From Eledone cirrhosa (Eukaryota): a stretch of DNA of 64,000 bases. Every line of letters starts with the position of its first letter. Within the stretch, counting starts at the first letter, position 1. Shown here piece after piece: positions 18,392-63,683 of the stretch. The notes below the pieces were generated by a model. That model worked only from the letters and a program-made list of their open reading frames with translations. It searched no databases and had not been told where the DNA came from. The translations under genes were made by a program, and so were the position numbers. The stretch lies in contig OZ024746.1 in the NCBI GenBank assembly GCA_964016885.1, positions 57,722,001 through 57,786,000 of the forward strand, read 5' to 3'.

Positions 18392-20953
18392 TACGATATT
18401 AAATAAATGAAAACTATATTTATAAAACCATATTTATTTCATTATATATATTTCAGGGATATCATATTAACAATATGTTATGCCTTCTTCAGACAAAATA
18501 CAATATAGACAGTTTTATAAATAAATTGATTTGACATACCGTTCAACATCGACTTGTATTTGGAAAGTTGATTTGGCAGTGAAAAATTGTAAACAGAAAG
18601 AAAGAAAGAAAGAAGGAAAGAAAGAAAGAAAGAAAATGAAGAAAAAGAAGAAATGCATGCAACTAAATAGAGAGATGGAAAGATAGATAAAGAGAAGAAC
18701 TTCATGTAAAGAAACAGAGAGAGATATATAGAGAGAGGAAATAGATAGAGATATATATATAGAGAGAAAAGTAGGTAGTTGAACATCCGTTGAATGACGT
18801 ATCAATGATACATTTATTTATTTATTTATTTATTAGCTCTAGTATTAATGTAAGGGAGATATATGTGGTTAGGAGAGAAACCAGCCGTTATATAGAGAGA
18901 AAAAAATGAAAAGTAATCAGACATAGGCGAGGCAGAATTTAAAAACCCTATGTTTCAATGTAGAAATATTAGTTTGTATAAAAAACAGGCACTATAATGT
19001 AAATATCAGTATTCATGAATGAGACACGTATCTATAATGTGTGAAAAGTAATGATCTTATGTCTAGTTTTAAAAATTCATATGTTTATATGATAACTACA
19101 AACATAGATGTGAATTTACGTGATCAACTGCAAACTCCTATTTCACACGGAGAACATTCTCATTGTGCTATAAAAATTTAAGTATACATATATGTGTATA
19201 TATACACATATATATAGAGTCTATATTAATTTTAACAATACTATTCTTGTCTTTACTCTACATGATTATCTATCAAGCAGAAATAGAGAACAGATTTCAA
19301 TATATTAATAAAAATATCAGAAACAAAAACAAAAAATAATAATAAATAAATAAAACAGAAAACTAAAAAATATTACATATTAAAAATAAAAATATTAAAA
19401 ATATTAAAAAATATTAAAATAATAAAAATAAAAACATAGTATGCCACGCAAATCGACCACAAAGATCAACCCTTCAAAATGAATTGACAATATATTGCCA
19501 AGTTCATTATAAGCATCAGAGTCGAAAACAGATAAAACTAAAAATTATTTACCAAATCACGTCTAGCAGAAATCATTTCAAAAGTTTAGGATACCCATTT
19601 GGTCTACATATGTTCTTATATTTAATATAGAAGTTTATCTAGTGTAACATTTATTCGATATATTTGGAGCATCAACTTTTAGGGTAGTTTAATTTTTCAT
19701 GAAGAATGTTTAAAATAAAAATAAAAAGAAGAATAAAAAGAAGAAATCGAAAGATTTATCGGCTAGTTTCATAAATAATTACAAATCAAACTAAATATAT
19801 TACATTTTAAATTCAAATTTATATTTAAAAGTTGAGTTCAATCTATGTTTGCAGCAACTGAATAAATGTGTCCGTAGATTAAGGGAATTTTTAGATTTTA
19901 GTATAAAGAATATCTCCTCCGCGCAGAGGTCACATGTCTCAGAGGATGAATTAAAAGGAATCCCTCTTGAGACTATATTCCAAGCCGTCGAATATCTAAC
20001 GTTATCTTGCCTAAGTTGCCAGAGTACGCCTGATAGTGCTGTTGAAGATTTTTTGCTTGGATCTGTGAAAGAATTCTTGTGGTTATTATAGCACAATGAG
20101 AATGTTCTCCGTGTGAAATAGGAGTTTGCAGAGTTGATCACGTAAATTCACATCGATGTTTGTAGTTATCATATAAACATATGAATTTTTAAAACTAGAC
20201 ATAAGATCATTACTTTTCACACATTATAGATACGTGTCTCATTCATGAATACTGATATTTACATTATAGTGCCTGTTTTTTATACGAACTAATATTTCTA
20301 CATTGAAACATAGGGTTTTTAAATTCTGCCTCGCCTATGTCTGGTTACTTTTCATTTTTTTCTCTCTATATAACGGCTGGTTTCTCTCCTAACCACATAT
20401 ATCTCCCTTACATTAATACTAGAGCTAAATAAATAAATAAATAAATAAATGTATCATTGATACGTCATTCAACGGATGTTCAACTACCTACTTTTCTCTA
20501 TATATATCTATCTCTATCTATTTCCTCTCTCTATATATCTCTCTCTGTTTCTTTACATGAAGTTCTTCTCTTTATCTATCTTTCCATCTCTCTATTTAGT
20601 TGCATGCATTTCTTCTTTTTATTCATTTTCTTTCTTTCTTTCCTTCTTTCTTTCTTTCTTTCTGTTTACAATTTTTCACTGCCAAATCAACTTTCCAAAT
20701 ACAAGTCGATGTTGAACGGTATGTCAAATCTATTTATTTATAAAACTGTCTATATTGTATTTTGTCTGAAGAAGGCATAACATATTGTTAATATGATATC
20801 CCTGAAATATATATAATGAAATAAATATGGTTTTATAAATATAGTTTCCATTTATTTAATATCGTAAATATACTCCAAATACTTGTTGAGTGCTGTTATA
20901 TCAGTTATAAATATTTACTAGTTGTAACCCAACAATTTAAATATAACTTTCCA
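18392..20953 (-). mobile_element. Truncated PLE (family C): GIY-YIG 3' fragment, 3' UTR and a ~780-bp inverted repeat
   Basis: Arms 18392-19171 and 20087-20865. Frame 19800-~20090 reads YNNHKNSF...CDLCAEEIFFIL...LNLR...CCKH. HHRs at 18437-18498 (-) and 20760-20821 (+). Confidence 0.85.
20760..20821 (+). ncRNA. Type I HHR (family C); mirror copy at 18437-18498 (-)
   Basis: UUUUGU CUGAAGA A GG..CAUAUU-GUU-AAUAUG..CC GAAA UAUAUA UA/AUGAAA. Confidence 0.8.
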
Positions 20954-20973
20954 TATATATATATATATATATA

Positions 20974-21555
20974 TGGTCGCTGCCAACTCGTTTTCGAGTA
21001 CAGCCACTAATTTATATCCATGTAGGAGAACCCTACAGATAAGCTGAACGAGTGTGACTTTCTAGTCCAGCCAGCGACTTGAAAACTCTGGTACAAACAC
21101 TACATTTGTGACAATTATTGAAACGTATTGCTGGACCCATGGTACCATGTGACGATAAGTGCAATGAGATCTCCAGATATAAAGCAATGCCTGTGCCGTG
21201 AAGCTTTTATAGTGAGCAAAGGCACTGCACAAAGCCTGTCCAAGTCTCTTGATGATATCTACCAAAAAGAAGAACAAATCAACATCATTGGATATCATCA
21301 GGGTTGCAGGTGTTATATCAGAGGTTTCCTTGTCCTAGAATTAAGTCATCCCTCCAGGTGATTTTGGATGGCCATTGACTCTTAAGAGCTCCTTTGCCCT
21401 TTGACAGGTTTTGTTTTTAGTCCTGCAGGATGTCCAGTCACCCTCCTCACGAAGAAACCTTGGTGGGGTTGCCAGTTTAGTCGCCAACGACTCGACCATG
21501 AGACATGTTGTACTGGGATACATGTTATCAGTAGCACCAACTGGTGACCTGACAT
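20974..21555 (-). mobile_element. ~600-bp non-autonomous element, probably RTE-derived (5' end joined to 3' end)
   Basis: Second copy at 24201-24810 with the same ends. The 3' part has a C2H2 remnant C..VCTRVFKSLAGLESHTRS like RTE/BovB C-termini. Confidence 0.5.
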
Positions 21556-61755: not shown

Positions 61756-62424
61756 CTACATTTTAAATTTATATTTATATTTAAACGTTGAGTTCAATCT
61801 ATGCCTGCAGCAACTGAATAAATTGCTCCTTAGATTAAGGGAATTTTTGGATTTTAATATAAAGAATATCTCCTCCACACAGAGATCACATGTCTCAGAT
61901 GAGGAATTAAAAGGAATCCCTCTTGAGACAATATTCCAAAACATCGAACACCCAACATTATCACGTTTAAGTTGCCAGAGTAAGCTTGATAGCGAAGTTG
62001 AAGATTTTTTGTTTGGATCTGTGAAAGAATTCTTATGATTATTGAAGCGAAGTTTGAATTCTGTCGAGGTAGAACCAACATAGTTGAAAGAATTTAAGTT
62101 AGTTTTAACATTACAATTGTATATTATATTTTTAACTAAGCAATTGTTATTTAACGGACATTTAGATTTATTTCTACAGTTACAGTTATTTAATTGAATA
62201 TTGTTTGGGTTATTATTGGTATTTTGGTTAGGTTTTAAATTCCTATTATTAATTCTGTTAATATTTTGTGCTAAATTTTTGGTGGACGAGTAAGTTAATT
62301 TTATAGTATGTCTATTAAAAATTGAGAGATATTTATGTGTTCTAGGGAAGCGTTTGTCAAGAGCATTAAAGAATAGTTTAGCAATGTGGGTTTTAATATT
62401 TAGTGAGAAAGGGGGGGGGGGCAA
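61756..62424 (-). pseudogene. PLE C-terminal linker + GIY-YIG endonuclease fragment
   Basis: PPFSLNIKTHIAK.F, CNCRNKSKCPLNNNCLVKNIIY, YVGSTSTEFKLRFNNH, CDLC.EE, LNLR..CCRH; from memory this resembles the Hydra clade of PLEs. Confidence 0.85.
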
Positions 62425-63683
62425 ACTATATTATATTTCTAGTTCTATTTCTTTTCCGGCTTTTGGAATTATTGTAATGTTTTCTATTATAGTTGTTAAT
62501 GTTGTTACCGTAATTAAAATTGTTATTATTTTGGTACTATCGTATTTCTACTCCAAAAACTTGTCGAGTGCTTTATATCGGTTATAAAATATTTACTTGT
62601 TGTAAACCAACAATTTTAAATAAAACTTTTGCATATATACACACACATATATATATATATATATATATATATATATATATATATATACATATATGGCTTC
62701 TTTCTACAATACTTTCTATACCTTTCATTTATATATATATATATATATATATATATATATATAAATATAAATATTATATATATATATAACTTCTCCGTAT
62801 AAGACAAGAGCTGAAAAATATCTGTTAACATGTTAAAATATCCCACACACAAGTACAGATACATTCCTACTGACCATCCCTCTACCACGAATTACTCTGC
62901 TACACACACACATACACACACACACACACACACACACACACACACACACACACACTTGTCTTAATAGGCATTTGAACTGTCAACAGGCGGCGGTTCGCAC
63001 ACATCCCTGCTGACGATTATCACAACAACGAACCTCTTTACTACTACTACACACGCACACACACACACATATTTGTCATGAAAGACTTATTTTTCAGTGA
63101 CTTCTCAATCAGCCGAGACAAACCTACATTTGGCGCAAAATCAATTTTTAACATTCTCATGACCTCTACCGACCAATCAAAATTGTTTTGACCACAAGAA
63201 TTTTTTCATACATCTGGAGCCACTTTTTTCACATAAAACATGTAGAATTTCCCAAACTAATCAGATTAGAGCAAACATCACGGGTGCTCTATCTCAAAAT
63301 TATTTTTGAAAAGCATTAGAAATGCGCAACCGATAAAAGTTAAAACCAGAACTGAATACTATCCAAAACTATTACTAATTTCTACTTATTCCTAACTCAA
63401 CTATTTTTCACTCGGAACAATTTGTCAGCATTTTCTTTTACTTTTACCAATATATATATATATATATATTCATATATATATATATATATATATATATATA
63501 TATATATATATAAATGAAAGGTATAGAAAGTATTGTAGCAAGAAGCAATATATATATATATATATACATAATTGAAAAATTTGAACAGGGACAAAACAGA
63601 GAGGCAGTACAACGAATGTTTATTAATTTCACGCTCTGGAGAGTGGGGTGTTGGTATATATGTATATATATATATATATATCA

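Follow-up and report, generated by a model that had tools for sequence, protein, structure and literature searches.

Penelope-like elements (PLEs) are the sister group of telomerase, whose template boundary element is a stop to copying positioned 5′ of the template. The eel LINE UnaL2 carries one copy of a stem-loop, which lies 5′ of its priming repeat and is therefore copied. UnaL2 and its SINE share this stem-loop at their 3′ ends, and its bulge is needed for mobility (Nomura et al. 2006, PMC1636434). Among PLEs, the lizard Poseidon element PAc cuts and extends both strands, using two internal start sites that bound the tail; it starts at +111–118 yet requires RNA to +172, and is predicted to form a dimer (Frangieh et al. 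2024, PMC11167929). The PAc start was described as lying in an 'AC-rich stem loop' inside the ORF, with no conserved or repeated signal defined in the available part of that report. The Hydra clade consists of C-terminal EN+ PLEs with a tendency to sizes under 3 kb, and the words 'hairpin' and 'stem-loop' are absent from its description, as far as the available main text goes (Craig et al. 2021, PMC8557442).

The window analysed here is a stretch of 64,000 nucleotides of Eledone cirrhosa DNA. The initial annotation had noted an ACTC/GAGT hairpin in PLE tails at ten sites, all of which were recovered by position and strand. Based on the geometry of hairpins and insertion ends, we put the probability at about 0.7 that this motif is the first of two tandem leader hairpins, each likely an RT docking site with copying starting 4–8 bases upstream. 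As with PAc, two start sites or ends bound a tail and the target is AT-rich (PMC11167929); PAc, however, belongs to another clade and starts inside its ORF, whereas here a duplicated, covarying leader hairpin lies 3′ of each site. No RCUC/UN-GAGY hairpin was seen by eye in the PAc template as printed (PMC11167929). A small bulged RNA hairpin near the presumed RT start, common to autonomous and non-autonomous elements, recalls UnaL2 (PMC1636434), but two hairpins are present here, each 3′ of its start and, on this reading, uncopied from that start. Points in common with the telomerase boundary are the stem at a distance of a few bases from what is copied, the short pairing of primer and simple repeat, and a related RT; in contrast to that boundary, the hairpin is found 3′ of where the copy ends on the ORF/hammerhead strand, and no repeat addition is implied.

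Hairpin sites in the window

The sites and the features associated with them were as follows, 'hairpin 1' being the noted motif.

20871–20893 (+): hairpin 1, family F3; ACUC/GAGU stem, UU bulge, CAA/UUG upper stem
18394–20953: F3 insertion with hairpin 20871 in its long arm
20766–20808 (+): minimal hammerhead core upstream of hairpin 20871
18450–18492 (−): mirror hammerhead core in the short-ended arm of insertion 18394–20953
19803–20114 (−): Hydra-type GIY-YIG endonuclease C-terminal fragment in the short-ended arm
25948–25970 (+): hairpin 1, family F3; long arm, inverted pair 24967–26028
25843–25885: hammerhead core upstream of hairpin 25948
31814–31836 (+): hairpin 1, F3-related subfamily; partial decay of the upper stem
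31713–31750: degenerate hammerhead core with hairpin 31814
49425–49452 (+): hairpin 1, family F1; UA bulge, CAGU/ACUG upper stem
49085–49414: perfect inverted repeat, F1, with hairpin 49425 in its long arm
49321–49368: hammerhead core with hairpin 49425, family F1
49600–49622 (−): hairpin 1, F3-related; the remnant is the tail alone
59452–59490 (+): hairpin 1, family F6, in the long arm of inverted repeat 59044–59453
59535–59581 (+): eleventh hairpin, GCUC/GAGC, bulged, differing from the usual F6 hairpin 2
62549–62571 (+): hairpin 1, family F3; insertion 60135–62638, short inverted arm, long end
61756–62430 (−): 5′-truncated Hydra-clade ORF; CxCx5C linker, YVGST endonuclease, CxxC, CxH
60191–60233 (−): hammerhead core in the arm with this ORF, which ends at the short site near 60135
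31030–31066 (−): hairpin 1, family F9; UGG/CCA upper stem, UU bulge
about 31133–31226 (−): hammerhead-like core, family F9, long stem II
30844–30864 (+): hairpin 1 variant (GAGUA), family F8
30775–30798 and 26059–26314: hammerhead core and partner arm, respectively, of F8 (hairpin 30844)
53958–53998 (+): hairpin 1, family F7, UG bulge
52863–53209 (+) and 52737–52855: F7 endonuclease fragment and short-ended arm, respectively
208–473 (−): tail and hammerhead used as a control, from another Penelope-like family, with ORF 689–2542 (−)

The hairpin model found no match in the control tail. The eleventh hairpin is probably the tail of another family that received the F6 insertion. Downstream flanks of five sites (20871, 25948, 31814, 62549 and 49600) were 71–100% alike, compared with 56–58% when shuffled, whereas flank identity at the other five was about the shuffled level; the ten sites thus represent six independent families. 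The motif had been placed downstream of a hammerhead, and this applied to seven of the ten sites, counting a degenerate core (31814), a TTGANAA variant (53958) and one with a long stem II (31030); none was present at 59452, 62549 or 49600, where the arms are cut short. Similarly, the proposed distance of ~40–90 nt to the (TA)n junction, measured from the hairpin end, held at nine sites (44–89 nt) but not at 59452 (36 nt). A Pfam search did not recognise the Penelope fragments.

Structure and covariation of the hairpin

The full motif consists of a 4–5-bp RCUC/GAGY stem, a 2-nt U-N bulge on the 3′ side and a short variable upper stem; the initial annotation covered half of this and missed the bulge and the upper stem, as well as a second hairpin beyond the long end. 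The pattern TACTCN{11,35}GAGTGC occurred 73,611 times genome-wide, and its reversed form, used as the control for a single hairpin, 9,781 times; a small number of large families account for most of the matches to the motif. When 940 kb were scanned loosely for ACTC..GAGT (2-nt bulge), no enrichment was seen (75 versus 64 reversed controls), so the flanking letters are needed in the pattern.

Covariation was assessed on 90 distinct hairpins chosen by sequence alone. The basal pair was paired in 78/90 (61.4 in the shuffle), and the upper-stem pairs in 84/90, 59/80 and 44/58 (69.2, 34.1 and 24.6, respectively). The 2-nt bulge register was found in 149/180, compared with 45/180 for 1 nt and 47/180 for 3 nt, the U at the bulge start being imposed by construction of the set. 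Compensatory changes were present across these copies, and both hairpins of one clade (L184, L223) carry a U-A basal pair. In a sister-pair test (n = 29 independent), double changes kept pairing in 9 cases and did not in 6, and 21 single changes broke a pair, indicating that the distal upper stem is loosely kept. The CUC/GAG centre never varies and is therefore uninformative on pairing, and no clear excess of G-U pairs over A-C mismatches was seen, so the covariation data alone do not fix the strand. Fold energies were weak (−2.3 to −8.7 kcal/mol), and the lower stem was missing from the lowest-energy fold at 2 of 11 window sites. Fixed position and covariation together uphold the earlier description of a cis-acting structured element in PLE tails; neither refuting case named with it, uniformly similar tails of recent relatives or a lack of positional enrichment or covariation, was borne out.

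The bulge letter varies (U 55, C 23, A 11, G 1), and an interpretation of the 3′ half as a Pol III B-box was set aside for this reason, by comparison with the B-box consensus. Among the 150 of 290 matches listed for an Rfam scan of the window, only low-complexity microRNA matches below gathering score were present; at gathering score, 13 loci gave no hairpin match and one unrelated tRNA only. No published description of the motif was found in a literature search, and no relative in the viral contigs searched.

Hydra-clade elements and their tandem hairpins

The motif belongs to Hydra-clade PLEs, in this genome and in distant marine animals. Every ORF-tied family in this genome is Hydra-clade, an assignment based on motifs, with a protein tree built from sequences of this analysis; the N-terminal proteins are 30–74% identical. 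The earlier wording of 'otherwise unrelated families' is thus right for the flanking DNA of six families but not for those tied to an ORF. L031 and L032 each contain a single ORF with YRDD at 351 and, at its C terminus, a GIY-YIG with YVGST at 633–634. The Hydra ORF has RWR at 36 (RWK in F4 and F7) and DKT, not DKG, at 117; the CxCx5C linker, CxxC and CxH are found in L032 and in window ORF 61756–62430, with the first C mutated in L031. The hammerhead lies in the pLTR and insertion is into (TA)n. RW(R/K), DKT, CxCx5C, CxxC, CxH, hammerhead and (TA)n targets are all common to the published Hydra clade, although tails are 55–135 nt here and 30–40 bp there (PMC8557442). F3, with a 2.2-kb ORF followed by about 1.6 kb to the short end, departs both from the published Hydra description and from a size generally under 3 kb (PMC8557442). 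An identification as the Nematis clade, made from motifs, was dropped against the published Hydra description.

In full-length elements, the order is hammerhead, hairpin 1, hairpin 2 and AUG. Tandem hairpins were seen in L032 and in read-through copies of families F1–F7, and a two-hairpin pattern gave 2,648 matches against 464 for its control. Hairpin 2 ends about 15–60 nt before the AUG, and the spacing between the hairpins is 76–133 nt across families, with both end sites following it. The F7 full-length copy L304 carries hairpin 2 and a Hydra ORF. For F6, the read-through copy forms a tandem unit of 1.27 kb that carries the hammerhead and both hairpins; a Hydra profile search of it found no match to the Hydra ORF. 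Both hairpins are retained in one non-coding tandem family (L276), structure thus being kept in a non-autonomous partner, as for LINE RT-recognition stem-loops. For F8, a read-through search gave 0 matches and no hairpin 2; for F9 it gave 1, a doubtful copy. ORF-linked copies of F8 and F9 were not found.

Metagenome Hydra loci with a leader contained at least one hairpin in 39/51 cases and two or more in 30/51, compared with 4/51 for ORF-internal and 1/51 for reversed controls. Read by eye, the published Hydra-1_Ajap consensus has both hairpins at its start, before the ATG, and Hydra-2_Ajap and Hydra-2_Amil end shortly past hairpin 1 (PMC8557442). Read-through past the ends of two other repeat families revealed no such hairpin by eye. 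Read-through of the L114 family showed a degenerate hairpin by eye, and two further repeat families had no read-through copy. The second hairpin, just past the long end, is the key to the whole arrangement.

Insertion ends and the proposed role in priming

Inserted copies terminate in (TA)n, with either a short end, immediately 5′ of hairpin 1, or a long end, immediately 5′ of hairpin 2; in unselected DNA, 68 of 70 (TA)n junctions lay at −12 to +1 of a hairpin. The last template-matching base was mostly at −4 to −8, with TA microhomology, and a short UA stretch is present at the end points; TAT/ATA occurred at −10 to −1 in 26/30 and 22/33 hairpins, compared with 7–14 in control windows. Inverted insertions combined a short with a long end in 79/82 pairs (26/26 in unselected DNA), the three exceptions being two long+long and one short+short. 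Metagenome alignments that did not stop at a contig end had hairpin-adjacent ends in 9/15. A tail on one arm and two discrete 3′ ends match what two start sites produce in PLEs. Some elements had also inserted into other copies, immediately 5′ of their hairpin 1 (L032; window 59535).

Each hairpin is predicted to bind the RT and to fix a single target-primed start 4–8 nt upstream, at a short UA stretch. The endonuclease would cut both strands of the (TA)n target, with 2–6 nt of pairing between each cut 3′ end and the UA stretch lying 5′ of one hairpin. Copying toward the 5′ end would then be carried out by two RT molecules, which by analogy with the published PAc model (PMC11167929) probably form a dimer on a single RNA. 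Priming at hairpin 2 would yield a copy with the 'tail', because the RT passes through hairpin 1; priming at hairpin 1 would yield one that lacks it; and hairpin 2 would stay uncopied. The two cDNAs would join head to head. The 'tail' is best read as the spacing between the hairpins. RT binding, one of the roles initially proposed, appears the most likely when judged from position and covariation. More tentatively, at a little under even odds, one transcript may act as a two-handed scaffold on which twin hairpins load an RT-EN dimer and both break ends are primed from a single RNA.

The hairpins could instead serve the hammerhead-cut, uncapped RNA as leader elements, in translation or RNP assembly, with copy ends falling close by only because UA-rich stretches able to pair with (TA)n are there by chance. 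Their position between hammerhead and AUG would suit this, and with TAT/ATA enriched at −10 to −1, priming could follow sequence alone. Leaders are A+T-rich, however, with TAT/ATA also in 10–14 of 30–33 control windows, and 68 of 70 junctions nevertheless use just the two hairpin-adjacent sites. Both hairpins are kept by a family without a Hydra ORF match, and the pairing of a short with a long end in each insertion is left unexplained, making this role unlikely.

Template boundaries of the telomerase type, as initially suggested, would need an antisense template: the hairpin is 3′ of the copying start on sense RNA and so has no 5′ stop role there, and the RT would have to copy antisense RNA toward the element's 3′ end and stop just before the hairpin. 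The motif is near-palindromic and present on the antisense strand in 17/51 leaders, antisense templating has been raised for Penelope elements (PMC3846280), and a boundary would place end points a few bases away from its stem. A leaky stop at hairpin 1, however, predicts frequent short+short and long+long pairs, and the unselected pairs were all mixed. Priming fits the fixed 3′ ends, with their TA microhomology, and the variable inner junctions, and the ends of the PAc tail have been mapped to starts on sense RNA (PMC11167929); we consider a boundary role improbable. Marginally less probable again is a DNA-level signal, an endonuclease recognition or resolution site in single-stranded cDNA or duplex that trims an integration intermediate. 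The tail has been ascribed to endonuclease-mediated resolution (PMC8557442), the D. virilis endonuclease reportedly needed the tail in DNA (in PMC11167929), and the insertions next to hairpin 1 of other copies would agree; yet hairpin 2 would have to be copied and then removed at nearly every event, and published RT start mapping gives the same ends without trimming (PMC11167929). Shared ancestry or chance among related repeats, to which the single superfamily at five of ten window sites and the few large families behind the bulk of genome matches might point, is refuted by the metagenome leaders, by covariation, with compensatory changes in a motif that persists at a median protein identity of 35%, and by the flank comparison, in which six families keep the motif amid shuffled-level flanks rather than uniformly similar tails.

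Under the RT-docking reading, the twin-hairpin rule would explain the two internal start sites of the lizard Poseidon element (PMC11167929). Where the published biochemical study, in its available part, has two PLE starts and no defined signal (PMC11167929), a small covarying RNA element here predicts both ends, and this relation holds across a clade spanning distant animals. The hairpin offers a way to detect Hydra elements and the non-coding partners that go with them, and it may be a compact signal for two-strand insertion templated by RNA. If the scaffold model is true, a ~25-nt hairpin would be a portable 'start here' signal, with hairpin spacing setting tail length, and the unexplained tail and head-to-head structure of PLE insertions would follow from one rule.

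Hairpin structure and occurrence

Ten tactcc..gagtgc-type motifs had been claimed for the window by the initial annotation, and all ten were present (starting at 20871, 25948, 31814, 49425, 59452 and 62549 on the plus strand, 49600 and 31030 on the minus strand, and at 30844 and 53958). The hammerhead said to lie upstream was represented by a core at 7/10 sites and not at the remaining three, and the proposed spacing of ~40–90 nt to (TA)n held at nine sites (44–89 nt), with 36 nt at the other. The host families had been called otherwise unrelated, which was true in part: five sites belong to one superfamily, while the flanks of the other five show shuffle-level likeness, so that the window holds six families. 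Across the 3.0-Gb host genome, where (TA)n and Penelope-like elements abound (74,670 candidates for a single family), TACTCN{11,35}GAGTGC was enriched, with 73,611 matches versus 9,781 for the reversed control pattern. A covariance model, trained partly on the same window sites, recovered the ten sites and one extra (59525-59588) at E under 1, and nothing beyond these eleven in the window; no Rfam family matched the hairpin.

Above the RCUC/GAGY lower stem, the 3′ strand bulges by 2 nt, the first of them U; the helix resumes with a Y-R closing pair and continues into an upper stem that varies, and RCU lies 3′ of the hairpin. Covariation was assessed in 90 distinct hairpins chosen by sequence alone, pairing not being required. 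The basal pair was intact in 78/90 (G-C 62, A-U 12, U-A 4) versus 61.4 when shuffled, and upper pairs 1–3 in 84/90, 59/80 and 44/58 versus 69.2, 34.1 and 24.6, a comparison that ignores kinship. The 2-nt bulge register paired 149/180 cells, the 1-nt and 3-nt registers 45 and 47. In a comparison of 29 independent sister pairs, pairing was retained after 9 double changes and lost after 6, and it was disrupted by 21 single changes; the hairpin core is thus firmly kept, the distal upper stem only loosely. A further alignment, with rows partly selected for pairing, agrees on the pairing. Isolated hairpin folds are weak, and an alternative fold is preferred at 2/11 window sites.

Host elements and the second hairpin

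Full-length copies of F3, one of the hairpin-bearing families F1–F9, carry a ~740-aa ORF with RWR, DKT, YRDD, CxCx5C, YVGST, CxxC and CxH. PMC8557442 gives this feature set for the Hydra clade, and by motif content F3 is probably a Hydra-type Penelope-like element. The leaders of F1, F2, F4, F5 and F7 also run into Hydra-type ORFs, and N-terminal protein parts among the ORF-linked families are 30–74% identical. No ORF-linked copy was found for F8 or F9. F6 is a 1.27-kb tandem unit; its copy at locus L276 (301-1573), with a hammerhead and both hairpins, gave no Hydra profile match and is a candidate non-autonomous partner.

In E. cirrhosa read-through copies, a second hairpin, mostly GCUC/GAGC, lies 76–133 nt past hairpin 1 and 20–63 nt ahead of the AUG. 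The two-hairpin pattern gave 2,648 matches versus 464 for the control, a count inflated by a 63-bp satellite made of the F2 hairpin-1 segment (G000:C1:81256814-81259215 and beyond); the GCTCC-type hairpin alone gave 4,316 versus 215. Among 78 metagenome loci, some of them near duplicates, 51 had at least 150 nt ahead of the N-terminal anchor. At least one hairpin was found in 39 of these leaders, two or more in 30 and none in 12; controls gave 4/51 (ORF), 1/51 (reversed) and 17/51 (antisense), the last being high because the motif is near-palindromic. Proteins of the metagenome loci have a median identity of 35% to those of E. cirrhosa. Hydra consensus sequences already published for sea cucumber and coral show the same hairpins when read by eye.

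Other repeats of the window
689-2542 (-), 51132-52106 (-): second Penelope-like family (YVDD, CxxC linker, YIGET); hammerhead 440-469, two discrete ends
3308-4327, 12842-14415, 17602-18195: further hammerhead-bearing repeat family, partial tandems, without hairpin
26783-29221 (-): non-LTR retrotransposon remnant
34493-39743 (+): non-LTR retrotransposon remnant
22157-23508 (+): non-LTR retrotransposon remnant
16235-16423, 32761-32956, 40156-40321, 41620-41823, 43242-43652, 47216-47420, 55392-55461, 57968-58157: dispersed ~190-bp SINE-like family, 85–98% alike

RVT_1 matches were obtained in two of the three non-LTR remnants. The second Penelope-like family, which is non-Hydra, has a hammerhead and tail and gave no match to the hairpin model, so that, within the limits of these tests, the twin-hairpin form seems particular to its clade. 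At loci L084 and L115, a retrozyme-like 311-bp tandem array with a hammerhead per unit ends in (TA)n and is without the hairpin motif.

Insertion ends and their pairing

Ends were surveyed in the window and 94 stretches of 10 kb chosen by position. Of 92 alignment ends scored, 36 lay just 5′ of hairpin 1 (short ends), 33 just 5′ of hairpin 2 (long ends), 2 were read-through and 21 lay elsewhere, these last being in most cases inner junctions or incomplete matches with other subfamilies. The motif is positionally enriched: 68/70 ends running into (TA)n fall at -12 to +1 of a hairpin. The last base matching the template is mostly at -4 to -8, with 2–6 nt common to the TA repeat, and TA begins at -6 in 15/30 and 16/33 metagenome hairpins. 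Ten of 25 metagenome alignments stop at contig ends; among the other 15, nine end at 0 to -3 of the hairpin, four are hammerhead-only inter-family matches and two end elsewhere. Existing copies also receive insertions: at window 59535-59581, in the L032 leader and at L339, an element has entered the brief TA run immediately 5′ of another copy's hairpin 1, giving a chimeric two-family leader.

Inverted pairs numbered 82, of which 79 were short+long, 2 long+long and 1 short+short. Selected loci had been chosen for a long end or ORF, and the pairing rule is fairly tested in unselected DNA only, where 26/26 pairs were mixed (~1.5e-8 under independent choice of ends). It is the longer, ORF-bearing arm that has the short end in 8/10 verified inverted pairs, which could indicate that the hairpin-1 start fires first.

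Proposed role and relation to known systems

From the arrangement, covariation, end positions and pairing rule observed, we infer RT binding and propose, with a probability of roughly 0.7, that the hairpins set RT start sites. To explain them as a translation or packaging signal seems unlikely, and as a boundary on an antisense template decidedly improbable; a signal acting at the DNA level is a shade harder still to credit, and shared ancestry or chance can be virtually dismissed.

The available part of PMC11167929 reports for Poseidon PAc that both strands are cut and extended, that two internal start sites bound the tail and that RNA ~55 nt past the start is required; a dimer is predicted. 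That a single RNA and a dimer serve both starts in the Hydra-type elements is a tentative extension, which we rate at slightly below even odds. The proposed role resembles that of the RT-recognition stem-loop of the LINE UnaL2, as described in the accessible part of PMC1636434, whereas the Hydra hairpin occurs twice and is placed 3′ of the start. A telomerase-like template boundary, suggested initially, does not fit, since the hairpin differs in position from the telomerase boundary element.

No description of the motif was found in the literature searched, most subscription papers and Repbase notes lying outside that search. The words "hairpin" and "stem-loop" are absent from the main text of PMC8557442 and likewise from the available part of a 2026 retrozyme preprint; PMC4209133 and PMC3846280, in the portions available, treat hammerheads and tails.

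With the hairpins setting the start sites, each would bind one RT and position the UA stretch that lies 4–8 nt upstream within the RT active site, for pairing with the cut (TA)n end. One strand would be primed at hairpin 1 and the other at hairpin 2, so that the tail would be left on one arm only and hairpin 2 would seldom be copied.
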